Source: Malacoraja senta
Taxonomy: Eukaryota
NCBI GenBank assembly: GCA_038087875.1
Contig: CM075988.1
Location: 12,774,001-12,838,000 of the forward strand
Length of the DNA: 64,000 bases
Direction of reading: 5' to 3'
Positions 5,391-42,470 of this stretch are shown piece by piece (within the stretch, counting starts at the first letter, position 1; every line of letters begins with the position of its first letter). The notes below the pieces were generated by a model, which had not been told where the DNA came from, did not search any database, and saw only the letters and a list, made by a program, of their open reading frames with translations. A program made the position numbers and the translations under genes.

Positions 5391-6910
5391 AAAGAAAGAT
5401 GTGATTAAGAGAAATATAGAGATTTGAGGTCACCCATTTAAGACTAATGTCAAGTGAAAATCCTTGACTTGGATGATTGTGAGCTTTTCAGAACTCTTTT
5501 CATTGAAGACCACTGAAAGCTAATAATTTGACTTTTTTTAAAGCCACTTTAATGCTGCTATCTCACAGCTCCAGAGACTGGGCTTGCTTCTGACTGCAAG
5601 AGGAAAGCAGGGGTAGTTCATGGGCATGAGAGGGAGAGAGAACAAGTTGCAGATATACTGGGAAATAAGGGGAGGTAGGTGGGATTGATTGGTTGCCTTG
5701 TCTGTTGTTGTAAGACAGATACTTCGTAGTCTGGGCTGGGAGGAGATGAGAAAAGTGAAAGGTTACTGAAATGAATCAAGAATGTGGAGTTGAGACAATT
5801 AATCATATTGAATTGTGAAGCTTGAGGAGCCAGGAGACCTACTCCTGCAACTAATTTGTATGGTTTTACTTTATAGACCAAAAAGGGAACAGAAGGATTT
5901 TAGTTTTTTTGTATAAAAATGTCTAACACTAACTGCGTTCCTGGTTCCAACCCACTGCTCGTTCTGCTTTGTCTGGGTCTGCACTGCCTCAGGTTCCTGA
6001 TTTTTTTTAAATTGTGGAACCATCATTTATTATCGCTCACTTTATAATAATTGACTGTATTTTCATTGTCCAGTTTAAGAAAAACATTTATTTTTTGCTT
6101 TACTTATTCTTGAAACATCTTGAAGTTAAAATCATTGGGTGTTAGTACTTTAATATGGTGTAAAACCCACCAAGGATAATACTGTAGACTAAGATTCAAA
6201 TGATTAATATTAATAAGTTTGATTTTGATGTGAAATTTTAATTGAAAATATGATTATTTTTTTGATGTGGTAATTAGGTGATGCCAACTTGGCTGTAATG
6301 AACTGAGAGACAATTGAACGAAGGAGTGACTTTGGATTGCCATCGTTTTTGAATGGTAGAGCAATACATGATTCTTTCTCATTGCAGTGAAATAGAAGGA
6401 ATGTCATTACCTCCTGCAATCCCTTTATGGGGATATATCACATCCAGTGGTCTGAAAAATTGCATGTATTGGTTTTAGAGATTGAGCGATGGCTTCATCA
6501 GGATTTAAATATGTTGCCATAGTGATATCACATTAGGACTTAGAAACAGTGTCTCCTGTCTCTGGTGCCGATGCATGATGTTTTGGTAAATATAATTTAT
6601 TTACCGTTGGCATTTGGAAAACTGTGAGCAATTTTATTACAGTTTATTCCAATGCGATCTGGACCTTATTCTATTACATAGTATATGACAATTAGCAGGA
6701 GTATGAGGCACCCGATAGTTTGTCAAGAAAGATTTTCTTTTGAGTCCAAGTCGATGAGAGTGGTGCACTATATTGTTATGCTTTGTCAGAAAGAATTATG
6801 TTTGATCACTGTATGTGTTTATCTGGAGTTCATGGAAGAACAAATTGTGAATTCAAAAGCAGAAAAATTACCTCCAAGCTTTGTGTATATTTTAAAGCAG
6901 TGCGTATTTT

Positions 6911-9171
6911 AATGGAGAGTGACATTGTTAATTCAGAAACAAGGGTCCTGAACTTAAAGAAAGGTAACTTTGAGGGTATGAGAAGTGAATTGGCCAAGAT
7001 AGACTGGCAGTTGATTCTTAATGGGTTGACGGTAGATATGCAATGGAAGACATTTAAAGACTGCATGGATGAACTACAACAATTGTTCATCCCAGTTTGG
7101 CAAAAAAATAAATCAGGGAAGGTAGTGCATCCGTGGATAACAAGGGAAATCAGGGATAGTATCAAAACAAAAGATGAAGCGTACAAATTAGCCAGAAAAA
7201 GCAGCCTACCAGAGGACTGGGAGAAATCCAGAGTCCAGCAGAGGAGGACAAAGGGCTTAATTATTAAAGGGAAAATAGATTATGAAAGAAAACTGTCAGG
7301 GAACATAAAAACTGACTGCAAAAGCTTTTATAGATATGTGAAGAGAAAAAGATTAGTTAAAACAAATGTAGGTCCCTTGCAGTCAGAAACACGTGAATTG
7401 ATCATGGGGAACAAGGACATGGCAGACCAATTGAATAACTACTTTGGTTCTGTCTTCACTAAGGAAGACATAAATAATCTGCCGGAAATAGCAGGGGACC
7501 GGGGGTCAAATGAGATGGAGGAACTGAGTGAAATCCAGGTTAGCCGGGAAGTGGTGTTAGGTAAATTGAATGGATTAAACGCCGATAAATCCCCAGGGCC
7601 AGATAGGCTGCATCCCAGAGTACTTAAGGAAGTAGCCCCAGAAATAGTGGATGCATTAGTGATAATTTTTCAAAACACTTTAGAATCTGGAGTAGTTCCT
7701 GAGGATTGGAGGGTAGCTAATGTAACCCCACTTTTAAAAAGGGAGGGAGAGAGAAAACGGGGAATTACAGACCAGTTAGTCTAACGTCGGTAGTGGGGAA
7801 ACTGCTAGAATCAGTTATTAAAGATGGGATAGCAGCACATTTGGCAAGTGGTGAAAACATTGGACAAAGTCAGCATGGATTTATGAAAGGTAAATCATGT
7901 CTGACGAATCTTATAGAATTTTTCGAGGATGTAACTAGTAGAGTGGATAAGGGAGAACCAGTGGATGTGTTATATCTGGACTTTCAGAAGGCTTTCGACA
8001 AGGTCCCACATAAGAGATTAGTATACAAACTTAAAGCACACAGTATTGGGGGTTCAGTATTGATGTGGATAGAGAACTGGCTGGCAGACAGGAAGCAAAG
8101 AGTAGGAGTAAACGGGTCCTTTTCACAATGGCAGCCAGTGACTAGTGGGGTACCGCAAGGCTCAGTGCTGGGACCCCAGCTATTTACGATATATATTAAT
8201 GATTTGGACGAGGGAATTGAAGGCAACTTCTCCAAGTTTGCGGATGACACTTGGGGGGCAGTATTAGCTGTGAGGAGGATGCTCGGAGGCTGCAAGGTGA
8301 CTTGGATAGGCTGGGTGAGTGGGCAAATGCATGGCAGATGCAGTATAATATGGATAAATGTGATGTTATCCACTTTGGTGGCAAAAACAGGAAAGTAGAC
8401 TATTATCTGAATGGTGGCCGATTAGGAAAAGGGGAGATGCAACGAGACCTGGGTGTCATGGTACACCAGTCATTAAAAGTAGGCATGCAGGTGCAGCAGG
8501 CAGTGAAGAAGGCGAATGGTATGTTAACATTCATAGCAAAAGGATTTGAGTATAGGAGCGGGGAGGTTCTACTGCAGTTGTACAGGGTCTTGGTGAGACC
8601 ACACCTGGAGTATTGCGTACAGTTTTGGTCTCCTAATCTGAGGAAAGACATTCTTGCCATAGAGGGTGTACAGAGAAGGTTCACCAGACTGATTCCTGGG
8701 ATCTCAGGACTTTCATATGAAAAAAGACTGGATAGACTCGATTTGTACTCGCTAGAATTTAGAAGATTGAGGGGGGATTTTATAGAAACGTACAAAATTC
8801 TTAAGGGGTTGGACAGGCTAGATGCAGGAAGATTGTTCCCGATGTTGGGGAAGTCCAGAACAAGGGGTCACAGTTTAAGGATAAGGGGGAAATCTTTTAG
8901 GACCGAGATGAGGAAAACATTTTTCACACAGAGAGTGGTGAATCTCTGGAATTCTCTGCCATCGAAGGTAGTTGAGGCCAGTTCATTGGCTATATTTAAG
9001 AGGGAGTTAGATGTGGCCCTTGTGGCTAAAGGGATCAGGGGGTATGGAGAGAAAGCAGGTACAGGATACTGAGTTGGATGATCAGCCATGATCATATTAA
9101 ATGGCGGTGCAGGCTCGAAGGGCCGAATGGCCTACTCCTGCACCTGTTTTCTATGTTTCTATGTTTCTATG
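6911..9171 (+). mobile_element. 5'-truncated CR1/HER1-type LINE, ORF2 RT region, frameshifted
   Basis: ORFs 6783-7784, 7793-8398 and 8251-9072 with [58 protein letters not shown]; 3' tail (ctatgttt)n. Confidence 0.95.
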
Positions 9172-10825: not shown

Positions 10826-12959
10826 GTGAAGAGTCCGCTGCAACGTTATTGACAGGCCAAAAGTAAATACTTCTGTTCTCAAAGGAATGTTGCAAAATTC
10901 ATATTCATGTGGGACTAAGGCCTCTTTGCCTCCTTTTACCTGGTGGGTTTTCCAAGCTTGGGGAATTATGGCCAACAAGGATTTAAAAATGGAAACTGTA
11001 TAAAAAGGCAAGCAAAAGATTGCAATAACTAACATGCCTCCATTAAAACATGGTATGTGATAGACCTGTTTTTGATTTTTAATGCTTTACTTCCTAATTA
11101 ACCCAAATTCACCCATGTGGTGGGATTAAAGTTACCCTGAGGAGATAATTATGACAGTCTAAAAGTATATTTGCAGCAGCTGATGAATTGGAATCAAAAC
11201 AGCAATGTTAACAAGATCTGACCAGGAGACTTGTTTCCTTTTTCCCTTCCATTATTTTCCTGAAATGGTTTCCTGCACTTATTCTCTCCTGAAAGTCTGG
11301 GTTGTGTGTGCGCATGAATATTCAGTAAGGAAAGGACGATGCCAGATTGGTGATCCATGATATCCACCTGTGCAAACTTGTAAAACAAGAATTCAACTAA
11401 AGAGAACCTGGCATCTACTCGATTTCCCTCAATTATATGCCAATGACTTGAGTTCATGTTAGTACATTTACAACATGTAAATGACTGAGAGCAGAGTGGC
11501 AGCTGGTGTTAAATTTGCAACTCTATCAGTAATCGCCCAGTGTGAGAGAGCCCCGTAAAAGTCAGAATGACTGAAGGCTTCGCTGCAGACTTGACATGAG
11601 AAAGGCAAACGCAAAATAAATAACACACTGCTGGAGTAACTCAGCGGGTCATCCAGCATCTCTGGAAGACATGATTGGTGATGTTTCGGGTCAGGACCCT
11701 TGTCACACACTGAATGATCTTCAATGCCATTTGTCTGCTTTAGGGTCATTTAGCTTCCTCCTTTCAGCAGGTACCCCAAAGCTGATCAGTCAGTTATTTT
11801 TTTGATTGTAAATTATCCCTACTGTAGATGGCTGATTGCAGAATCAATGATTGTTGATGAGCAGACATGTAGGTTGCAAGAAATAGTGTAGAATGGTACT
11901 GATGAGTCTGCTTTGTGAGCCGGTATAGACTCAGTGGGATGAATGGCAGGGCTCGAAATTAGCGGTTGCCCGGGTGCCATTGACCACTCAAAGTGCCGCC
12001 GGGCAACCTAAACACCGAGTCATTTTGCCCGGCTTGGCAATCAAATACTGGTTTATACCGATAGACACAAAAAACTGGAGTAACTCCGCGGGTCAGGCAG
12101 TATCTCTGGAGAATAGGAACATGACGTTTCGTGTCGGCGGCGGCTGTGCAGGGCAAAGATACTGGGTGCGGGGTGATGAAGGGTCGGAGCGAATGACGGG
12201 CCCCGAACAGCGGCAACAGCGGCCGCGACAGCGGCTCCACCGCCTCCTCCTCCCGCACCCCGCCCGGCGGAAGGAGGCCTCTCTCTCTCTCTCCCTCCCT
12301 CCACCCCTCCTCCCGGCCTCGGCGTGCGAGAGGGGTTGTTTTGAAAGCGCCGTTGGTGGATTTGCAAGCAGCGGCCGCTATCGCCCTGATAACGGCCGCT
12401 GCTTGCAAATCCGCCAACGGCGCTTTCAAAACAACCTCTCTCGCACGCCGAGGCCGGGAGGAGGGAGGGAGAGAGGGGGAGGGGGGAGAGGGAGGGAGGG
12501 GGAGGCCTCCTTCCGCCGTCTGAAGCAGCTGCACCAAAGTTCCTATAGCTATACCAAAGATCCTATAGCTATAGGATCTTTGAGCTGCACCGCTCGGCCC
12601 TGCACCTTGCTGTTGGCTGGCAGAGGAGGGGAGGTGGTGGCGAGGAGTCCCAACAACCACCCCCTATGGGGGCGGCACTTTGGCGTTGGACAGGGATGGC
12701 CAAGGCAGCGGGGCGATGTTGTCCGAGGAGCGCTGACCTTCCTTCCTCCACACCTCCTCTGCCCCTTTCCCCCCCCTCTCTCTCTCTCTCTCTTGTACAC
12801 CCCCCTCCACCCCTCTTATCCCGGGACCCCTCCTCTCCATCCCGCACTGATCCCCATTCCCTCTTCTATTCAGTCCTCACTGACATCCCCTGTGCTCCCC
12901 TCCCCATCTACCTCCCCCCCCAATCTATTCATCACCCTACCCACCTTGCATTGATTCTC

Positions 12960-13530
12960 CTGCCACCCCCCCATCCATCCTACACTGGTCCCCCAATTCA
13001 TCCTGTACTGACCCCCCTTCCCATCCATCCTGCACTTCTCCCCCATTCATACTGCACTGATCCTCCCATTCATCCTGTACTGACCCACCCTCCATTTACC
13101 CTGCATCCATCCTGTAGTGATCTCCCCATTCATCTTTTACTGATCCCCCATTCATCCTGTACTGATCCCTCATGCATCCTGTACTAATCCCCTCATTCAT
13201 CCCATACTGATCCCCCATTAATCCTATACTGATCCCCTCATTCATCCTGTAGTGATCACCATTCATCCTGCACAGACCCTCCGATCCACACTGTCCTGAC
13301 CCCCCCCATTCATCCTGTACTAATCCCCCCCCCATTCATCCTGTACTGATCCCCCCATTCAAGAAGAATGGGGTGAACAGTCTGAAGAAGGGTCTCGACC
13401 CGAAAATTGCCTATTTCCTTCGCTCCATAGATGCTGCCTCACCTGCTGAGTTTCTCCAGCATTTTTGTCTACCCCCATTCATCCTGTGCTGACCCCCCAT
13501 TCACCCTGTACTGATCCCCCCTCCCATCCA
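12960..13530. repeat. C-rich ~22-24-bp tandem repeat (cccattcatcctgtactgatcc)n inside the hAT-like element
   Basis: Many visible degenerate units. Confidence 0.85.
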
Positions 13531-32476: not shown

Positions 32477-32561
32477 CTTTCATAGGTCGGGGCATTGAGT
32501 ATAAGAGTCAGGAAGTCGTGATGCAGCTTTATAGGATTTCAGTTAGGCCGCATATGGAGTA
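32477..32561 (+). repeat. 85-bp duplicated host target (left copy; right copy at 41730-41814)
   Basis: ctttcataggtcggggcattgagtataagagtcaggaagtcgtgatgcagctttatagga.ttcagttaggc.gcat.tggagta occurs on both sides of the ERV; 3 mismatches in 85 bp. Confidence 0.92.
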
Positions 32562-32795
32562 CTTGCTTTGAGTCCGTCTTGGTTTCTGTTTTCTCTCATC
32601 AGCACGCTCTGGCCAAGTCAACCTTTTATCGTATCCCACCATAATTCCGAGGTCTAGAACCCAGGGGAACCCTTTTTTTGTATTCTTTCTTGGGAAGCGC
32701 TCGAGTGGAGTGGTGGCCGTTTGACCCACTGACAAGGGAGAGAATCACTCGGGCAGTTGGGCCCGAAGTGGAGCAAAAGGAACAAAACCCCTACA
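32561..32795 (+). repeat. Truncated 5' LTR (approximately U5 only, 235 bp)
   Basis: Aligns without gaps to 41495-41729 with 10 mismatches in 235 bp by my count; ends ...CCCCTACA just before the PBS. Confidence 0.9.
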
Positions 32796-32797
32796 GA

Positions 32798-34665
32798 ATG
32801 GTGACCACGGCAGGACCTCGGTGGTTTGGGATATGTGACTTGCCAGAGGGGGTGAGAGAATGAAGCAAGATGGAGGAGAGAATCTCCTCTTATCTGTTTA
32901 AAAAGATCAATCTCACCAAACAATGGGTGATAGCACTTTTGACAGCACAGCCGCCCGCAGCAGCTGCAGCAGAATGGACGGAAAGTAAAGGTTATAATAA
33001 AGGTCAGGAAAAGGCAGTTTGGCTAGCGTGCCTATCACAGCAAGTAGCCAAAATGGAGAGACAGGTAGAGAGTCTAGAAGAGCAACTAAAAAAAGCTAGG
33101 GCCAGCGCTGAGGAAAGCGCTAGAGAAGGGGAAGGGCTAAGTGAGGAACTCAGTGAAGCCAGGCAGTGTATCTTGCAGGCTAGGGAGTCCCACAGAAATG
33201 CCCAGGAATTCCTCCAATGTCAGGCGGTAGAGGCAAAGGAGAGGGAACGGAATGCCCAGGAACTCCTGGCTCAGAGTACACAGAGGTACAGGGAGCTGGA
33301 GGGAAAGTTCCAAGATATCCAAGCAGCATACAGGGTGGCCCGTAGCGAGCTAGGGGATTGTGATCACGGGCCTTGCCAGGCAAGGATAGCACAGCTGGAG
33401 GAGACTCTGTCCAAGACTAGGGGACGGGTTCACCTGGTAGGACCAGGGGGGTCCCCCAGGGGCAGAGGGCTTCCCTCAGCACGTGATTCCCCAGGGGCAA
33501 AGGGGAATAGACCACCTCCTGAGGCGCCGGGAATAGGTCCGGGTCGGCAGGTGGGGTTCGGGTTGTCCGGGGAGGGACAGGCCCAAGTAGGGGCGGGAGA
33601 GCACCCTCAGTTAGCGGCGTCTGCGCCATGTGTAGCATACCATGAGGTGGTGGGGTTACCGATCATGGTGGGAGAGCAGGGGGTAATGGGGCAACAGCCC
33701 CGGGTAGGGCAGATGTGCCCGGTACGGCAAAGGAAATATGATCCCCCGGTAGGGCAGGCAGATAGGGGGCCCATAGAGAGTGATATCATCATTCCCCATG
33801 GGGGATGGTGGCTCAAGTTCCCAGGTTAACCAGGGCGGGAGACCCGTCATTGCATTTTATGGAGGTGCAGCAGGCAGCCGACATAAACAATTGCGATGAG
33901 GTAGAACGGGTAAAGCTACTACTGATGACCCTGGATTTCTACCTATGCAAGGCGGTGACCTCCAGGGAAGGGGGAAGACCTGAAACATGGGTAGCGGCAC
34001 AGACGGTGATCCTGGAGGCCATGGGGTTGAATCAGGGTAGTCCTTTCGCCAGGGTGGGGGAGACGAAGCAGCAGGTAGCTGAGTCCCCGGACATGTTCGC
34101 AGACAGACTGTGGGCAGTGTATGAGGGAGCGTGTGGGACGCCTTTAGATAGGCGGAATTTAGATGAGCGATCAGCCCACTGGCTGAAGACTCTGGTAGCG
34201 AATTGCCTCCCGCGAGTTAGGGCAAAGGCCGAGCACTGGTTCGACCCAGCGGACCCAAACCTTAACGAGGCGGAGGTAATAAGGAAGCTCACCCTTGCGT
34301 ATCGCAACGGGGAGAGAAGTGAGGAGAAGCCCATTAAGGGCAAGGTGCACAATATAGTACCGGCACCCCCCAAAAGGAGGGAGTGGAAACAGGAAGGCAG
34401 CCGGACCTCTTCCGAGATGAGGCCAGTGTGCTATGGGTGTGGGAAGCCCGGGCACTACAAGAGGAAGTGCAGAAACCCAAGTAGAGCAGTGGATAGGACC
34501 CCGGTAACAGCCGACCCAGCCCCGGAGGAGGGAGCGGCCGTGCCGGGAACAATAGATGTAAAAGATCTATTGGCCTATTTGCAGTCAAAGGCGGGAGGGT
34601 CCGGACAGGTAGCCATGGCAACAGGCCAGGGCGCGCCCGTATCCGCACCCCCGGCACCTTTATGA
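32798..34665 (+). pseudogene. gag: Retroviral gag (disrupted): N-terminal coiled coil, capsid-like region, single CX2CX4HX4C zinc knuckle
   Basis: ORFs 32870-33829 and 33805-34665 are joined by a frameshift near 33800. Heptad-rich LSQQVAKMERQVESLEEQLKK...; knuckle CYGCGKPGHYKRKC; upstream in-frame ATG at 32798 separated by one TGA (32861). Confidence 0.85.
32799..32816 (+). promoter_or_regulatory. Primer binding site, probably tRNA-Arg(UCG)
   Basis: TGGTGACCACGGCAGGAC, 3 nt after the LTR-terminal CA. It matches the complement of a vertebrate tRNA-Arg(UCG) 3' end as I recall it (TGGCGACCGCGGCAGGAC), with two CpG-type transitions. Confidence 0.7.
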
Positions 34666-37600
34666 CTGCCAGCAAAACAGCCCACATTCCTATGCCCGTT
34701 AGAGTATGGCCCATGTGGGAGACCCTGGGTCAAGATGGAGGTCCAGGATGTGGTCGGGAGTTACCTGCTGGACACAGGTGCTTCCAGTACCATTGTCCAC
34801 ACGGACAATCCCCGTACATCCCCTCTATCTAGTGGGGTGCCCTATAGTCTTGTCGGTTTTACGGGAAACGAGAAGACGGGGATTTTCTCTGTTCCCTTGT
34901 CCATTCGAGTAGGAGCACTCCAGGAGCAGTGGAAGTGCGTCCTGATGAGTTGGGAGCAGGAGGGAAAGGGGATACTAGGCGCCGACTTTATAGTGGCCCA
35001 CCAGGTCCTGGTGGACCTGAGGAACCACTGTTTGTGGGGCATAGCAGGAGAAGGGGCTGAGAGAGAGAAGGAGGTAATGGTCATCGAGAGGGCACCAGAG
35101 AGAGGGGCGCTGTGTGTCGTGACGCCCAGAGAGGGGTACGATGTAGAGGCCCTAGTGAGGCAGACCCCGACAGAGTATCGAGGCCATGTTAAGCGAAATT
35201 TGGCCGCATTCGCTACTCACAAGCACGACTGTGGAAGGGTCACAGGAACAGAGGTCAGGATAGACGGGGATCCCATGTCCCGACCGCAGAAACAGTATAG
35301 TTTTCCCTGAGAAGCGGAGGCTGACTTAGAAGTCGCCCTGAGTTCACTGGTTAAGCAAGGCGTTTTGAGGCCCATAGCCACCCACGTGAACTCACCGCTC
35401 TGGCCCGTACGGAAGCCAGACAATTCATGGAGGGCCACGGTAGATTATAGGGTCCTGAATAAGAATATTCCGGCTTGCGCACCAACTGTGGCAGCCGTAG
35501 CAGACCTATTAGGGGAAATTCCGGCGTCTGCATCTGTATTTACGGTGCTAGACATCTTGAACGGTTTCTGGTCTATCCCGGTCAGGAAGGAAGACCAGTA
35601 CACATTTGCTTTCACATTCAAGGGGCAGCAGTACACGTGGAACTGTCTTCCCCAAGGTTTCCACAATAGCCCCAGCATTTTCCACCAATGTATGGCGGAA
35701 TGTTTAAAGGAATTCAGTGAGCCCCACAAGGTCGTCCAGTATGTGGATGATATTTTGCTATTCACGGACACCAGTGAGGAACATGGGCCCCTACTAAACG
35801 AACTGCTGGAGCTGCTCTGTAAGAGTGGATTAAAAGTAAATCCCAAGAAGGCACAGATAGGGTTACAAGAGGTAAACTTCTTGGGACTGACCCTTAGGGC
35901 CGGAGAAAGGGGTATCGATACAGCAAGAAGGCAGGCAGTGCAGGAACTCCCAGTCCCAACGGATGTGGGGGGGGGTAAGGTCATTTCTGGGAGTCACGGG
36001 CTACTGCCGAGACTTTATAGAGGACTATGCCGCAGCCGCAGCACCTCTGCTCCGGCTGCTACGCAAAGGGGTAGAGTGGGAGTGGGATGAGCAGTGCGAG
36101 TCGGCATTCGTCCATTTGAAGCGGGACCTGCAAAAGGCCCCAGCTATGGGAGCCATCGATACAGGGAGGAATTTTTCCTGGAGGTAGCCGCCGGCAGCGA
36201 CGGCCTGAGCGCAGTGCTCCTCCAGGAACGGCACGGCAAGTTAAGGCCAGTGGTGTATTCCTCCAGAGCCCTCACAGAGGTAGAAAGGTCCTATTCAAAC
36301 TGTGAGCGGCACCTGCTAGCCACATACTGGGCAGTGAAGAGGGTACAGGTCTTCATAAGAATGTCCCCCATAACCCTCCTGACCCACCATACCCCAACCC
36401 AGATGCTGCTGGACGGTCGGATTAAGGATGGGACCGTTAGCAGTGCGAGGATCACTCGCTGGACCCTTCTCCTTTCCCAAATGGCCTGACGGGTTGAGAG
36501 GCTATGTGAGCCCAAGCTCGCAGCCAATTTCGTGTACCCAGGGGAGCCACACCGTTGCTCGGTGGAAGGGGTATGGGAGGTGGACTTTGGGCTTAGAGCA
36601 GGGTTACATCCCACGGGTAGGGAAATATACGTGGACGGGTCCAGTTTCGTGTCCGAGGGCATACGGCTCACGGGCTGTGGGATCTGGGACCCCGAGGCGG
36701 AGATAGCCCTAGCCCTTAAACTCCCACATACGTTAAGCGCCCAGCAGGCCGAGCTGGCGGCGGTAATGTACGTGGTCACCCATCCCGAGCGTTTCCCCCC
36801 TCCATACACCATATGTTCGGACAGCATGTTCACATGCAATTCCTGCACGGAATATCTGGCCATCTGGTCCCGCCGCGGGTACACCTCATCGGACGGGAAG
36901 CCCCTGACCACTAAACCCCTATTAGAGAGGATTGTAGCAGCCGTAGGGAAGGGCGGGGATAGATATATCCATAAGGTGAAGGCCCATTCCAAAACGGAGC
37001 CACGGGGCGAGGGAAATCAGAGGGCGGATTGCTTGGCCAGAGAAGGAGCCAGGAGTGGGAAAGCATGGGACCCCTATGAGGAAGGACAGGTAGCTGCAGT
37101 CAGGGAGCGGCCTCGAGAAAAGGGGAGTGCGGGAGTGGTTTTGGCCCCGGACCTGACCACGGTCCAGGCACAAGACCCTATTTTAAAGGCTGCCTCAGCA
37201 GCCATTTGCAGGCAGGAGAAGATAGAGGGACCATATGGGGGTAAAGACATGTCAGTAAAGGAAGGCATGTTATTCAAGGGAGATAAGTGGGTAGTGCCTT
37301 CCCTGTACAGAAGGGAATTTATAAAACTAGCCCATGAGGGTCATGGGGCAGGTCAACCCGGGCCAGAGACCACATGGCAGTGAGTAGAGATGGCAGGATG
37401 GTGGCCAGGGCTCAGGGGAGACATTCGCGACTTTTGCGCAAGCTGTCTGGTTTGCGCAGCAAACATCCCAGACCCCCAGAAAAGGAAGGTTTCTATGGGA
37501 CACATCAGGAGGGTGGTGGGGCCATGGCAGTCGATTCAAATCGACTACATCGGACCCCTTCCAACCGCTCAAGGGGGTTACAAGTACTGCTTAATCCTTG

Positions 37601-38734
37601 TGGATGTGTTCTCAAAATGGGTAGAGGCCTTCCCTTGGAGAGCAGCCACCACTATGGGTACAGCAAAAATCCTGGTTAGGGAGGTGTTCACCAGGTGGGG
37701 ACTCCCACAGTTCGTGGAGTCAGATCAGGGGAGCCATTTCACGGGACAGGTCATGCAGTCCACCCTTAGAATACTGGGCATCAAGGACAAGTAGCATGTG
37801 GCCTACCACCCCCCATCCTCAGGTCCGGTAGAGCGGTTGAACCGGACAATAAAGGAAAGGATAAGGAAGGAAACAGGGGACTTTTACCCCTGGTCCTTAT
37901 GGGGATTTGGGCCAGCCAGTCCAGGAGTATGGGGTACTCTCCCCATGAGCTTATGATGGGCCGGGTCATGAGAACGCCTATGCACGTTATGGTCCCAGCC
38001 TTAACAGAGGGACAGCTCAGGGAAGTGAATCGGGACAAGTTCGCCAAGAGGCGATTTGAACAACTTAGGCAGGTTCACTGGCAGGCAGCCAGAAACATGG
38101 GGGCCCAGCACCAAAGAAACAAGCTACTGCTGGAGCCTCGCAGGCATTGCGAGTGGGCAGTGGGGGACCAGGTAATGGTCAGGAGATATGCTAGGGTAGG
38201 GTGTTCGATACAACATAGTGGACAAGGCCAGTCCCATGGTGTATGCCATTCAGCTTCCCCGTAGAGTCAAATGGTTCCACATCAACCAGTGTAAATTGTT
38301 CGACCCCACAAGGGCAGGGAAAAGTAAGAAAGGGGTATATGTCAGGGAACAGGATCAAGAACAGACCCGGGTTGATGTGGAAACCGTAGGGGAGCCAGGC
38401 GAGTCCACAGGTAGTCAGCCTGAAGTAGCCTGCTGTGTCCCAGGGTGAGGACTGGAAGCAGCGGAGAAGGAGGTTGACTCCGCAGGCAGGTACCATAGAC
38501 TGCCTAAGAGAGGCAGAACTAGCAGAAGCAGAGGAGATGGAGGTATCACCTCAGGTGTGGGAACCCCCGGTCAGACGTAGGAGTAACAGGGTCACTAAAC
38601 CCCCAGTAAGGTGGTCCCCATCCCTAATTAAACCTAGGGCTAGGGCCGGCCACAGGAGGGCAGGGAGGGAGAGTGGCCGAAACAGGGCAGTACGGAGTGC
38701 GGCTGGAGGGAGCCCGTCTCCGGAGGGAACGTAG
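34666..38734 (+). pseudogene. pol: Retroviral pol (disrupted): protease, RT, degenerate RNase H tether, RNase H, integrase with basic C-terminal tail
   Basis: PR LLDTGASSTIV...ILGADF; RT NSPLWPVRKPDNSWRATVDYRVLN, LPQGFHNSP, QYVDD; tether LSAVLLQE...YSSRAL..VERSYSNCERHLLA; RNase H IYVDGSS/SAQQAELAAV/CSDS/KVKAHS..GNQRAD; IN H..C..C, QIDYIGPLP, VDVFSKWVEAFP, SDQGSHF, VERLNRTIK; tail RRSNRVTKPPVRW. Stops at 35308, 36487, 37381 and 37792, plus several frameshifts. Confidence 0.93.
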
Positions 38735-39163
38735 GGGTATCTCGAAACCCCGTAGTGCAAAAGGAGGTGAGGGGCAGTCAGGCCCCTCGACAGGAGGAGT
38801 TCTGGCCTGCACGGGTGGGCCCACCAGAGGGGTGGCCCCAGCGTGACGGGGACCAGTTATGAGTTGGCCACCCGGAGACGGGTGGCGTTGTATATAGCAT
38901 TGGTTTGTGTGTGAGTAGATGTAGTACGTGTTTAGTAATAAGATATAGGGTTTTGTATAGATACAGGGGAGTACAGGGACGGACAGTACGGGAACGTCGG
39001 CTGCATCGAAGGGATGGGCTGTGGAAAAGTAGACCACAACAGACAAAGGCAAAACCCCGAATGCCATTATTAGGACGGTAGCCGCTACCGTCGGCCGGAT
39101 GGCCACTCTTCCATGGGTGTGATGGAGTGCAGGGAGGCGAATAGCGATGTGGAGGAAAGGAGG

Positions 39164-39183
39164 TGTTTTGCTTTGTTTTCCAG
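39164..39183 (+). promoter_or_regulatory. Putative env splice acceptor
   Basis: tgttttgctttgttttccag immediately followed by ATG (39184; MDSPAVWMMATWFW, signal-peptide-like start). Confidence 0.6.
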
Positions 39184-40420
39184 ATGGATAGCCCCGCCGT
39201 ATGGATGATGGCAACGTGGTTCTGGGGGAGGAAAATGCGGTGGTAGGATCGGGGCTGCACGAAGAGGTGGCAATGACTCTACATCTAAAAGAAATCATAG
39301 CACAATTGGAGACACATACAAAAACGATAAACGCTTTGATTAAAGAGGACCGGAATGCGTCCGATCAGGCTGTACAGAATGAGGTGTGTGGGCTGTATGG
39401 TGCGTGGTTGTTGGGGGAGGGGAGGAGCAACCTGGAAGACCTGAGGCAAGGTCGGGTCCCCTCCTGGATAAGCAACCAGCACCTAGCAGCGCTACACCCT
39501 TATAACAGCACTTTGAGTCCTTGTCAGCTTCGTGTGGCCTCCGAGGCCTACCCGGTACCAGTGGATTGTGGAAAGTCCAATCACACCATAATGGGAGTGG
39601 TCGTAAGAATCCCGGTGATGGGAACCTCGGCACGACCAGCTCCTCTGTACCGAGTGGAGAACGTGGGAGTTGTTCGTGGGGAGGTGCATATTCGCTATGG
39701 GAAGTTCCCGCCTTATGTCATAGTGAGGGAGCAAGCTGTGACAGGCATTGACCTTTTGGGTTGTCGGAGCCGGGGAGCACATGGGCGCCAAGGCTAGGCC
39801 TCAGTGTGGGTTCAGGACTGTTGGGGCACAGCCTATAAACTGTACCATGGAGGCGATGGCGGCAGACCATGTCCCTCCACAGGTGGCGTATATAGGCCGT
39901 GGGACATACTGTGTCACCACAAGTGCCCAGCGGTATCAGCACGGATCACAGCTGTGGTGCCCGATACCACACAGCAGCTTCTGTTTTAAACCCAGGGCAG
40001 AAGTCCATGTGGCACAGCAGCAAATATTACCCATCCCGGAACCTTCTTCGGTTCACCTCTCGGTATGAGAAAATGTAACGGACTTATGTAACTATGTGGC
40101 CCAATTCGGGTATGATATTCCCCCAGTGAAGGAAAAATTAAAAGAGTTGCTGGCGGCGGTCGAGTTGTCGCACAAACACTTCTTCTCCCTGGAACAAAAG
40201 ACACTGGATATCGCCAGGGAGATCGAAGAAATCAAGTCTCCAAGTTGGTGGGACCTGGAGTCCTGGATCGTAGTTCCAGCATGGGTCCGCATCGTGTCCC
40301 ATGTTCTGATCATCTGCCAGATGATAATTGTGGTGTATTTGCTATGCATTAATTGCAAATTTAAAAGGCGGAGGAGGATGGCCAAATTACAACAGCTGGT
40401 AAATCGAGCCATAGCTGTAA
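39184..40420 (+). pseudogene. env: env remnant, class I fusion (F-glycoprotein-like) protein with HR1, Cys-rich domain, HR2 and TM; N-terminal part apparently deleted
   Basis: ORF pieces 39201-39797, 39748-40068 and 40096-40542. Amphipathic helix LHLKEIIAQLETHTKTINALI; GVVVRIPVM..LYRVENVG; Cys-rich segment; HR2 LKELLAAVELSHKHFFSLEQKTLDIAREIEEI; TM IVSHVLIICQMIIVVYLLCI followed by KFKRRRR. Confidence 0.78.
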
Positions 40421-40726
40421 CGACACCTCGGCACTGTAAAATGTCTGTACTCTATTGCAATGGTTTTCGTACGTATGTTGTGTTCCCTGCATTTTCAGGG
40501 AACGGTCGTGATGGTACTGTATGGTTTGTGGGATTGATTTAAAGTAAAACGTGTATAGTGTAAGTTAATGTGCTTCAAGGGTCTAGTTTAACAATTAAGG
40601 GGTCTTTCGGGGTACATAATTTCACAATCTCGACAGGGGTGTTTACAACTCTTGAGGCTGGAGGAGTTGCCCACTAACTTTGTCAATCAATACGGTCCGT
40701 GCAAGCCTGGACGTATCGTAGGGGCA

Positions 40727-41729
40727 TGTAAGTTATTGGGGGCAAATCTTCCAAAAGATTATGGAAGAACTCGGGGATAAGGACCTGGACATTTTAAAAC
40801 AGACTTGCTGGCTGCAAAGGAAAAAAAAACAATCCACAAAGGAAGAACCAGTTTAAAACCTGTCTGTGGGCCTGGGCATTACATGGTGTGAACAGGAAAG
40901 GCCTGGACGGAGATAACGAGATTATCTTGGAAAGACAAAGGAAGGAACCGAGCCTCAGCAGACGGGGGTAAACAGCCCAGCAACAAGACAATCACCATCG
41001 TGGATGACCCATCCATCTGGAAAATGGGAGCCCATCCAGGTGATGGGATAACGATCAGGTTGAGGCATCATGCCTTCAGCAAACCCATTATCATCGGAAG
41101 CCTATTGTTCATGCCAGATCGAAACTGGGAATCATCGAAAGACCCTTTTGTCCAGAGGACCACCTGGGAGGTTTCAAGGGAGAAACTCAGGTATAAAAGG
41201 GACTGTCAAGCAAGGTTTCGCTCTCTTTTCTGCTCTGTTGGATGACTCCTGACCCTGCATCGATCTAGCTGTAAGTACCCCAGACGACCTGGTGAAGTTC
41301 CCGAAAATAGGATAGAGGTTGAGAGAAGAAGGGGAAAGGGAGTGTATTTGTAAAATTGTGTAAAGTAAGTTTTTACGACATGCCCGATAATTATCTTTCC
41401 ATAGTCTTAGTTTAAAGCATAGGTTTAGTCACGTATTATGTGGAGTTGGTGAGATTCGATTTCTCATTTGTTCAGTAAAGCGTTTACATTTTAGACTTGC
41501 TTTGAGTCCGGCTTGGTTTCTGTTTTCTCTCATCAGCACGCTCTGGCCAAGTCAACCTTTTATCATATCCCACCATAATTCTGAGGTCTAGAACCCAGGG
41601 GAACCCTTTTTCTGTATTCTCTCTTGGGAACCGCTCGAGTGGAGTGGTGGCCGTTTGACCCACCGACAAGGGAGAGAATCACTCGGGCAGTTGGGCCCGA
41701 AGTGAAGCAAAGGGAACAAAACCCGTACA
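40727..41729 (+). repeat. 3' LTR (~1 kb): TATA 41192-41198, splice donor 41271, polyA signal AGTAAA 41474-41479
   Basis: The 3' end TACA is fixed by comparison with the 5' copy. The 5' end is inferred from TGTA after a short purine run (aggggca), giving TGTA...TACA termini, so the start is less certain. Confidence 0.7.
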
Positions 41730-42470
41730 CTTTCATAGGTCGGGGCATTGAGTATAAGAGTCAGGAAGTCGTGATGCAGCTTTATAGGACTTCAGTTAGG
41801 CTGCATTTGGAGTATTGTGTGCAGTTCCGGTTGCCCCATTACAGGAAGGATGTGGAGGATTTGGAAAGGGTACAGAGGAGGTTTACCAGAATGATACCTG
41901 CATTTCAGAATATTAACCAAAGAAAGAGGTTGGATTATTTTCTCTGGTACGCCGGAGGTTATGGAAAGGCCAGATAGAAGTATATCAAATTATGAGTGCC
42001 ATAGAGAGGGTAGACAGTCAATGTATTTCTCCCAGAATGGAAAAATCAAATACTGGAGGGCATAGCATTAAGATAAGAGGGGCAAAGTTTGAAAGAGATA
42101 TGGAGGTGTTTTTTACACAGATAGTGGTGAGTGCCTGTAATATGCTACCAGTGGTGGTGGTTGAAGCAAATAGGTTAGTGGCATTTAACAAGCATTCGGA
42201 TCGGCACATGGATTTGCAGGGAATGGAGGAATATGGGTTATGTGTAGGTAAATCAGTGTTGGTCTTATCATGGTGGATATTAATTTGTGTTTATTGTGTG
42301 TTTTGTCATTTATTATTATATGTATGACTGCAGGCAACGAAATTTTGTTCAGACCGAAAGGTCTGAATGACAAATAAAGGAATCTCTAATCTCTAATCTC
42401 TAATGTTTGGCACAGGCATCAGGCATTGTGGACTGAAGGCCCGGTTCGCGAGCTGTACTGTTCTATGTTC
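41730..42470 (+). mobile_element. CR1/HER1 LINE 3' fragment (the ERV target; 5' part at ~32458-32561)
   Basis: Encodes FIGRGIEYKSQEVVMQLYRTSVRLHLEYCVQF...ERVQRRFTRMIP, homologous to the CR1 ORF2 C-terminus at 8251-9072. Confidence 0.88.

Follow-up and report, generated by a model that had tools for sequence, protein, structure and literature searches.

A high-copy endogenous retrovirus family of a skate that probably joins a canonical retroviral Pol to an F-type envelope core

The element described here is an endogenous retrovirus (ERV) at positions 32562-41729, plus strand, of a 64,000-nucleotide stretch of the Malacoraja senta genome (assembly GCA_038087875.1, 1.94 Gb; contig CM075988.1, positions 12,774,001 to 12,838,000), referred to below as the window. 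It is a damaged copy of a family which we consider likely to be a canonical retrovirus branching near the base of the retroviruses other than lokiretroviruses, with an envelope protein (Env) whose core is predicted to have the fold of the fusion (F) proteins of paramyxo- and pneumoviruses. A preliminary description of the window had reported a retroviral element at this place, and the open reading frame (ORF) listing, the repeat search and the Pfam scan agree with it; they give the gene order gag-pro-pol-env together with long terminal repeats (LTRs) and a primer-binding site (PBS). The same description had read the element as lokiretrovirus-like and proposed that it could extend the host range of that group to cartilaginous fishes or belong to a related undescribed lineage. 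The lokiretroviral affiliation was abandoned on the evidence of the reverse transcriptase (RT).

The position of the family was determined from a maximum-likelihood (ML) tree of RT and tether (45 rows, 416 columns, LG+C20 PMSF), which was rooted on seven Ty3/gypsy rows after 15 near-duplicate or partial rows had been removed from 60. The lokiretroviruses formed a clade with a support of 100/100, and all the remaining retroviruses, including the family, were joined at 100/99. Forcing the family to group with lokiretroviruses cost 28.5 log-likelihood units, with a p-value of 0.0004 in the approximately unbiased test (p-AU). The RT of the family contains the strings LHISNGFWSIPV, LPQGFHNSPSIF and VQYVDDILLF, which are of the canonical retroviral type, with the LPQGF motif present; the motif LPQGFHNSPSIF is like that of murine leukaemia virus-type, foamy and snakehead retroviruses (SnRV). 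The published lokiretrovirus RTs read RCPFGYSNSPAEF, VDVANGFWTM and LIYVDDILMRS (PMC7947760 supplement). Seven teleost proteins (P0018-P0025 less P0022) carry CPFGYSNSPAEF, VDVANGFWTM and LIYVDDILMR, as in the published lokiretrovirus RT alignments, and were therefore taken as lokiretroviruses. Another protein from the Pol search, P0030, is nearly letter-identical to the printed SnRV RT. The nearest relatives in Pol are frog and coelacanth ERVs, with a sequence identity of 41-44%; the values are 33-35% for the teleost proteins of lokiretrovirus type, 30% for walleye epidermal hyperplasia virus 1 (WEHV-1) and 26-28% for foamy viruses.

That the family is a lokiretrovirus or belongs to a sister lineage, and so carries the host range of the group into cartilaginous fishes, seems to us highly improbable. 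The F-fold Env would fit such a reading, as would the dual RNase H with Integrase_H2C2, drawn in the same way for lokiretroviruses (PMC7947760 supplement Fig. S4), and the coiled-coil N-terminus of Gag, which loosely resembles the Spc7/SMC-like regions described for some lokiretroviruses. The preliminary description had regarded the two RNase H domains, together with an F-like Env, as characteristic of lokiretroviruses; according to the text of PMC7947760 they are common to all retroviruses and are therefore not a marker of this group. It had also named a grouping of the RT elsewhere among the findings that would refute its reading, and the RT lies outside the lokiretrovirus clade, with the LPQGFHNSPSIF motif in place of the lokiretroviral RCPFGYSNSPAEF. 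The Env of the family gives no match to PF00523, whereas a published lokiretrovirus Env matches at E 2.2e-7 (PMC7947760). In the lokiretrovirus Env printed there, cleavage follows about 110 residues and the fusion peptide is hydrophobic, while the family Env is predicted from its sequence to be cleaved after residue 372. Six chondrichthyan genomes had been screened with lokiretrovirus RT and none was found (PMC7947760 supplement Fig. S1), in accordance with the statement of the preliminary description that these viruses were unreported from cartilaginous fishes; three of the six genomes belong to Orectolobiformes, the order with a relative of the family Env (Chiloscyllium punctatum). With the RT outside the clade, the proposed extension of the host range does not hold.

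The domain order of Pol, a degenerate gypsy-like RNase H followed by a retroviral RNase H and an integrase, was correctly read in the preliminary description and is recovered by Pfam (PF17917, PF00075, Integrase_H2C2 and rve; E 9.4e-17 for Integrase_H2C2 in the paralogue). In the sequence search of the Protein Data Bank (PDB), Ty3 was the top solved relative of pol (E 6.6e-71). An env-carrying Ty3/gypsy element of errantivirus-like type with an F-type env would account for this hit, and F-type env genes are described as common in metazoan errantiviruses (bioRxiv 10.1101/2023.10.26.564294); one Env relative, P0161, shows a weak Baculo_F match (E 0.0011). The second RNase H, of the retroviral type and situated after the tether, speaks against such an element, and so do the RT motif, which is LPQGF and not the gypsy-type PFGL, and the tree, where the family groups with retroviruses away from the seven Ty3/gypsy rows at 100/100. 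The same preprint reports no vertebrate ERVs homologous to invertebrate errantiviruses. The RT tree and the dual RNase H refute this explanation, to which we give almost no credit.

The protein was studied in an intact paralogue, whose Env counts 785 aa from the first Met. A hydrophobic N-terminus and a Trp/Cys-rich N-terminal domain precede the furin site; behind it come a long helical stretch, a Cys-rich beta region, another helix, the membrane anchor and a short basic tail. The predicted cleavage site is RQRR at residues 369-372 (RKRR, RHRR or RQRR in relatives), and the segment behind it is not strongly hydrophobic. An AlphaFold2 model of residues 215-785, built from 36 sequences, had a mean pLDDT of 72.9, with values above 85 in the beta domain. 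When the model was compared with PDB by Foldseek, all 37 listed rows were paramyxo- or pneumovirus F proteins (best 1ztm_B, E 3.5e-10). In the case of VIA-align, 49 of the 50 listed rows were F proteins (best 8dmj_A, Z 11.7, rmsd 5.1 A, 291 aligned residues), and the remaining one was a foamy-virus Env (8rm0_A, Z 8.3, rmsd 5.8 A, 274 aligned). The modelled core of the family Env thus has the fold of paramyxo- and pneumovirus F and of foamy-virus Env, the only proteins matched among the listed rows, and the F-protein-like layout suggested in the preliminary description is upheld. The core would comprise an F2-like piece, the furin site RQRR, a long heptad-repeat helix, the Cys-rich beta domain, a second heptad repeat and the membrane anchor.

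The Env of the intact paralogue did not match PF00523 at E <= 1, nor did 16 of its relatives at E <= 0.1; a PF00523 search across the genome of the window was also without a match, as were the control genomes. No TLV_coat or other Env Pfam match and no CX6CC in the transmembrane (TM) subunit were found as signs of a gamma-type Env. NCBIfam gave no match with Env or Gag, the PDB sequence search with Env returned one chance match only (E 2.5), and the word-indexed protein search with the TM part returned one chimeric gene model only. The best score in the ESM Atlas was 0.84, for an unnamed chordate cluster, which is a lead only. The env had been described as devoid of a CXXC or immunosuppressive signature: this is true as far as a gamma-type TM motif or Pfam match is concerned, but the surface (SU) subunit of intact copies contains a conserved CxxC. 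In the N-terminal domain of SU (L011:411-1190 and relatives) this CxxC has the form CL[TVS]C and is followed by GRWWWLRKLS.

An exhaustive HMMER search of 1.84 billion representatives revealed 49 relatives of the Env at E <= 0.001. Among the 30 that were looked up, 20 were chondrichthyan, from seven species (Scyliorhinus torazame, Pristiophorus japonicus, Rhinoraja longicauda, Heptranchias perlo, Mustelus asterias, Heterodontus francisci and Chiloscyllium punctatum), four were from frogs (Pelodytes, Mantella, Xenopus tropicalis and X. laevis) and six were unnamed; none came from another vertebrate class. The closest named relative is that of Scyliorhinus torazame (79%). Residues 221-759, i.e., the Env core, are 28% identical to a Chiloscyllium Env with a different N-terminal domain. 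The N-terminal part of this Chiloscyllium relative is unrelated and labelled Ig-like. A conserved core joined to an unrelated N-terminal part corresponds to a variable head on a conserved F-type fusion machine, and the head domain of the Env therefore seems, judging from these sequences, to be exchangeable. Pieces of the Env also occur in annotated shark proteins (P0004, P0132, P0135 and P0161, annotated as Niban 1-like, ZFP2-like, cadherin-related 5-like and an fbxo15 isoform). These supposed host proteins are probably gene-model chimeras with ERV fragments.

The expression signals of the family are of the orthoretroviral style. The TGA stop of gag (34663-34665, plus strand, by ORF reading) is conserved, in the reading frame of pol, in the two copies that were read, the window copy and the paralogue, and pol has no start codon of its own but continues the gag frame behind the stop. 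This arrangement points to the synthesis of Gag-Pro-Pol by readthrough, which is also used by gamma- and epsilonretroviruses and SnRV (PMC13517186). The gag gene (32870-34665, plus strand; ORFs 32864-33829 and 33784-34665) had been described as coiled-coil with one CCHC motif, and this was confirmed: its N-terminal part is a coiled-coil stretch with weak coiled-coil Pfam matches, and the single CCHC knuckle at 34426-34473 (plus strand) matches zf-CCHC with E 9.5e-4 in the window copy and E 6.4e-5 in the paralogue. In PDB, gag matched retroviral nucleocapsids only. The PBS at 32799-32816 (plus strand) is complementary to the 3′ end of the host tRNA-Arg(TCG) gene (L013:1451-1523) with CCA added, and 16 of 18 positions match, as they do in the paralogue. 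Between the env stop and the start of the LTR there are about 185 nt, where no conserved ORF was found in the window copy or the paralogue; U3 of the window copy does contain an ORF, which an indel interrupts in the paralogue.

As read from these features, competent members of the family would be transcribed from an LTR of about 0.9-1.0 kb and reverse-transcribed from a tRNA-Arg(TCG) primer. They would produce a Gag with a coiled coil and a single CCHC nucleocapsid knuckle, and Pro-Pol by readthrough of the same-frame TGA. Integration would generate a 4-bp target duplication, and entry would be mediated by a class I Env with an F-type core and a variable N-terminal domain of the receptor-binding type.

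Foamy viruses are defined by separate expression of Pol, a Gag without Cys-His boxes and the tas/bet genes. Endogenous foamy viruses of cartilaginous fish were reportedly described by Wang, Chen and Cui in J Virol in 2023. The family could be a foamy-like ERV (Spumaretrovirinae), perhaps of the same lineage as that published virus or as ERV-Spuma.0-Sca, and its Env would simply be of the foamy type. Several observations agree with this: the foamy Env shares the F fold (PMC11468914), and 8rm0_A is aligned with the family model at Z 8.3; the best solved relative of the integrase is that of prototype foamy virus (PFV; E 3.4e-34 in the PDB sequence search); the RT motif NGFW is common to the family and foamy viruses; and a clade of the two is not rejected (p-AU 0.097). 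ERV-Spuma.0-Sca itself is a ‘spuma-like’ ERV of Scyliorhinus canicula (small-spotted catshark), with 293 fragments, a 9,220-nt consensus and LTRs of 866-869 nt (Song et al. 2023, PMC10699275), and the nearest named Env relative of the family comes from the congeneric S. torazame. The short LTR-start and RT motifs of the family were not found in the supplements of PMC10699275, in which long sequences are printed in shortened form. The ML tree, on the other hand, keeps the family and foamy viruses apart, and the identity of Pol to foamy viruses (26-28%) is below that to WEHV-1 (30%). The family has pol in the gag frame behind a stop and without its own start, a CCHC knuckle in Gag and a PBS of the tRNA-Arg type; neither accessory ORFs between env and the LTR nor Pfam matches to the foamy Env or Gag families were found. 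In addition, the extra domain of the family Env is N-terminal, while in foamy Env it lies between the subunits (PMC11468914). Having weighed both sides, we consider a foamy-like identity unlikely.

The CCHC knuckle, the readthrough layout, the absence of accessory genes and the RT motif near to that of SnRV favour instead an orthoretrovirus of the SnRV-clade type. A clade of the family with the frog, coelacanth and Xenopus lineages and SnRV, which sits on a long branch (1.19), was not rejected (p-AU 0.337). Several points weigh against our placement of the family and of its Env. Its position among the non-loki retroviruses in the ML tree is a basal polytomy, formed by the family with P0005 (75% identical), a coelacanth-plus-frog lineage, a Xenopus lineage and P0008, and a 24-row clade of SnRV, foamy and epsilon/gamma-like (class I-like) rows excludes the family at 96/97; the value for a joint clade with foamy viruses, given above, must be counted here as well. 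The rows of the tree were drawn from a search that used the protein of the family as its query, and the set was composed without alpha-, beta-, delta- and lentiretroviruses, ERV-L and named foamy-like ERVs of fishes and sharks, so that the assignment to an SnRV-type orthoretrovirus is provisional. What identified the lokiretrovirus clade were motifs identical to those in published alignments and not named records. The Env fold comes from a predicted model with a pTM of 0.54 and a post-fusion-like shape, and a model computed from 10 sequences for the N-terminal domain of SU (260 residues) reached a pLDDT of 38, too low for use. An Ig-like head is reported for related shark ERVs. Finally, SnRV-like and spuma-like ERVs of sharks are already in print, and the family may have been catalogued as ‘spuma-like’ with its Env fold unnoticed. 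With these points counted, a canonical retrovirus with an F-fold Env core is still the reading we hold to be probable.

The family is present in high copy number. Searches of the genome gave at least 149 matches to the RT query and at least 153 to the env query, which corresponds to at least 150 loci. In some copies the pol frame reaches about 1,400 aa and the env frame 798 aa. One full-length copy has LTRs that differ at 1 of about 880 positions and is flanked by a 4-bp duplication, CATC; it retains an open pol of 1,402 aa and an env of 798 aa, but its gag contains a frameshift. By the near-identity of such LTRs some loci are very young, and the family was active until recently. Since the LTR pieces of the window copy differ at 10 of 235 positions, the activity of the family extends over a long span up to recent times.

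The window copy is a member of defective sublineages which share a 1-nt insertion in RT and the deletion of the whole SU. The junction of the SU deletion (39214/39218) was found in 36 of the 150 listed env matches, and contigs of other copies carry undeleted sequence at 39218. The shifted-frame tail of RT was crossed by at least 33 of the 149 listed RT matches, and the shared G insertion (about 35975-35985) was seen in all three readable aligned copies. Such common defects across many loci indicate that defective sublineages multiplied, probably with proteins supplied by intact relatives. The SU deletion and the insertion in the RT G-run are not strictly linked across loci. When 31-mers of the element were sampled, 16-43% of them were present per run in 20 of the 22 listed sequencing runs. 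Those runs span ten organism labels and one unlabelled run, and near-identical copies of the family are therefore present in several labelled organisms. No RNA run holding words of the element was found among the 22; two possible RNA runs look like DNA.

The window copy itself is a dead provirus. It had been presented as near full length, which does not stand for env, where 1,075 nt are missing. As for the LTR and the PBS of the preliminary description, the latter was confirmed, but the 5′ LTR is limited to the final 235 nt of 1,003. This remnant (32562-32795, plus strand; repeat D1, 32561-32795 versus 41495-41729) is presumed to be U5, with U3 and R gone, and its start corresponds to a place 16-17 nt past the AGTAAA hexamer of the 3′ LTR (AATAAA in the paralogue), near the R/U5 border. 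In gag there is a frameshift near 33800. The pol gene is one frame interrupted by TGA stops at 35308, 36088, 36487 and 37381 and by frameshifts near 35980, 36168, 37780 and 38200-38450; that near 35980 is a one-base insertion in a G-run of RT and was also present in other copies, as a DNA alignment with the intact paralogue and three further copies showed. All segments of pol are on the plus strand. The protease with its DTG aspartic motif (34666-35310; gag-asp_proteas / Asp_protease_2 and translation) ends at the in-frame TGA 35308-35310. It is followed by RT (35311-36090; RVT_1, E 1.8e-35), with an in-frame TGA at 36088, and by the tether (36091-36489; PF17917, E 9.5e-22; PF17919, E 3.8e-16), the degenerate Ty3/gypsy-type RNase H-like domain, with an in-frame TGA at 36487. 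The next segment (36490-37383) comprises the retroviral-type RNase H at about 36622-37050 (PF00075, E 3.9e-19) and the start of the zinc-binding domain of integrase, with a TGA at 37381. The integrase core (rve, E 4.7e-13), an SH3-like C-terminal domain and a basic C-terminal tail of pol occupy 37384-38893, collinear with the 1,402-aa pol of the paralogue.

The env remnant (39135-40542, plus strand; stop at 40540-40542) was delimited by ORFs and by BLASTN against the intact paralogue, in comparison with which it lacks Env residues ~11-369, i.e., the whole SU up to the furin site. At 39214/39218 the initial ~10 codons meet the fusion (TM) subunit, which retains the heptad repeats, the Cys-rich beta domain and the membrane anchor (about 40267-40356). 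A Pfam scan of the remnant gave no match, and no gamma-type TM motif was found in it. The 3′ LTR is complete (40727-41729, plus strand; 1,003 nt, TGTA...TACA); its start, reading TGTAAG, was set by alignment of the 5′ flank and LTR of the full-length paralogue to the post-env regions. It contains TATAAAAG at 41192-41199 and AGTAAA at 41474-41479.

The insertion site of this copy is unusual. The element is bordered by direct repeats of 85 nt (D2; 32477-32561 and 41730-41814, neither assigned to a strand; 96%), which differ at 3 of 85 positions, while the full-length paralogue has the ordinary 4-bp target duplication CATC. The duplicated segment lies within one CR1-like LINE (long interspersed nuclear element), in the C-terminal region of its RT, and the LINE frame runs on upstream of 32477 and downstream of 41814. 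Its divergence (3.5%) is similar to that of the LTR pieces (4.3%), so both are probably of one age. The right end of the element is an exact LTR end (...TACA), and the left end lies close to the U5 border and shows 1 nt of microhomology. Such ends, together with the 85-bp duplication, form the pattern expected from one-ended integration. The sequence suggests either this aberrant integration or a rearrangement as old as the insertion. In the former case, incomplete viral DNA without U3-R on the left would have arrived, with integrase acting at one end and host repair closing the other. We infer this account from the ends, and it is weakened by the fact that a later rearrangement of a normal insertion would produce the same sequence. 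LINE-mediated retroposition of an ERV transcript was considered as the source of the 85-bp duplication and rejected, as the right end is an exact LTR end and carries no poly(A) tail.

Elsewhere in the window, a CR1-type LINE was found at 6744-9072 (plus strand), with an RVT_1 domain at 7721-8395. Its best named matches are from Callorhinchus milii (73-74%), followed by turtles and birds (55-66%). These matches and the many chondrichthyan relatives of the Env point, by the names of the relatives, to a cartilaginous fish as host, in agreement with the preliminary description. A C-rich minisatellite at 12460-13521 is composed of 23- and 45-nt units in up to ~11 copies with 67-74% matches, and this region has a raised G+C content (0.54) and a strong negative GC skew. 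No host genes were detected in the window, as the 16 long ORFs outside the element gave only LINE RT.

As an object the element is an ordinary ERV; what makes it notable is the pairing of an orthoretrovirus-style gag-pol with an F-type Env. The origin of the retroviral envelope is an open question, for which four scenarios relating F-like and classical Envs were listed by Wang and Han (2020; PMC7947760), and the F fold of the foamy Env was shown by Fernandez et al. (2024). A lineage which is not lokiretroviral, has no foamy-type expression and yet possesses an F-fold Env would mean that more deep lineages have an F-type envelope. We tentatively propose, as a possibility short of an even chance, that the shark and frog lineage is a third deep retroviral branch with an F-type Env, beside lokiretroviruses and foamy viruses, with expression of the orthoretroviral style (CCHC nucleocapsid and Gag-Pol readthrough). 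If it is a true basal branch of the canonical retroviruses, retroviruses would ancestrally have had an F-type Env, and the gamma-type and lentiviral-type Envs would be later replacements. Such a lineage would make this ‘F-type first’ scenario testable by a structure-based Env tree. It also demonstrates that an F-like Env and two RNase H domains are insufficient to identify a lokiretrovirus. On this reading, the near-identical LTRs (1 difference in about 880 positions) and the long pol and env frames that are still open would further suggest that elasmobranchs may even now be infected by a related exogenous virus. Large, in part very young, and distributed across sharks and skates, the family should be useful for dating retroviral activity in slowly evolving hosts.

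Among known retroviruses, SnRV is close to the family in several respects, and its PBS is of the tRNA-Arg type. The RT motif of the family (DISNGFWSI / LPQGFH.SP.IF / LQYVDDILL) is very near to that of SnRV. Both would express Gag-Pol by readthrough of a stop, which is UAG in SnRV (PMC13517186) and TGA, as deduced from sequence alone, in the family. The ML tree does not join the two. SnRV belongs to the complex retroviruses, having additional ORFs and an Env tail of 136 residues (PMC12193657), in contrast to the family with its short tail and no accessory ORFs. The SnRV clade (‘clade Huo’, Xu et al. 2018) is stated to occur in all major vertebrate lineages (PMC6001957) and is described from fishes, amphibians, reptiles and birds (PMC12193657); SnRV-like ERVs are known in a chimaera, the elephant shark, as CmiERV lineage I, and epsilon-like ERVs have been described from this species as well (Han 2015, PMC4422223). 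In the literature outside subscription journals and bioRxiv supplements, no mention was found of an F-fold Env in an SnRV-type or shark ERV.

With foamy viruses and foamy-like ERVs, of which pol fragments have been reported in the elephant shark, the family shares the F-protein core fold of Env (predicted in its case), an integrase near to that of PFV, a deep position in the RT tree and the occurrence in sharks. It differs from them in its putative Gag-Pol readthrough as opposed to separate Pol expression, in the CCHC knuckle, the tRNA-Arg PBS and the lack of accessory genes, in the N-terminal place of the extra Env domain, which foamy viruses have inserted between the subunits, and in the lack of a sequence-level match to the foamy Env and Gag families.

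The lokiretroviruses (Wang and Han 2020, PMC7947760) have in common with the family a retrovirus-type genome, the dual RNase H, Integrase_H2C2 and an F-type Env with a furin site, coiled coils and a membrane anchor. The RT of the family is outside their clade, and its Env lacks similarity to PF00523 and has an extra N-terminal domain of ~245 residues and a late cleavage site. Its gag and pol are split by a stop, whereas the Loki-Xtr record is printed as one Spc7-Gag-Pol polyprotein (PMC7947760 supplement). In the case of paramyxo- and pneumovirus F, assigned to ‘subclass Ib’ of class I (Fernandez et al. 2024), the likeness consists of the predicted core fold, a furin site preceding the fusion subunit, a long HR-A (first heptad-repeat) helix, a beta-rich head, HR-B and a membrane anchor. 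Unlike these proteins, which show 7-15% identity to the family Env in structural alignments and belong to the Pfam family Fusion_gly that the Env does not match, the Env of the family has a large N-terminal domain and a post-cleavage segment of no strong hydrophobicity, and it is encoded by a retroviral genome.

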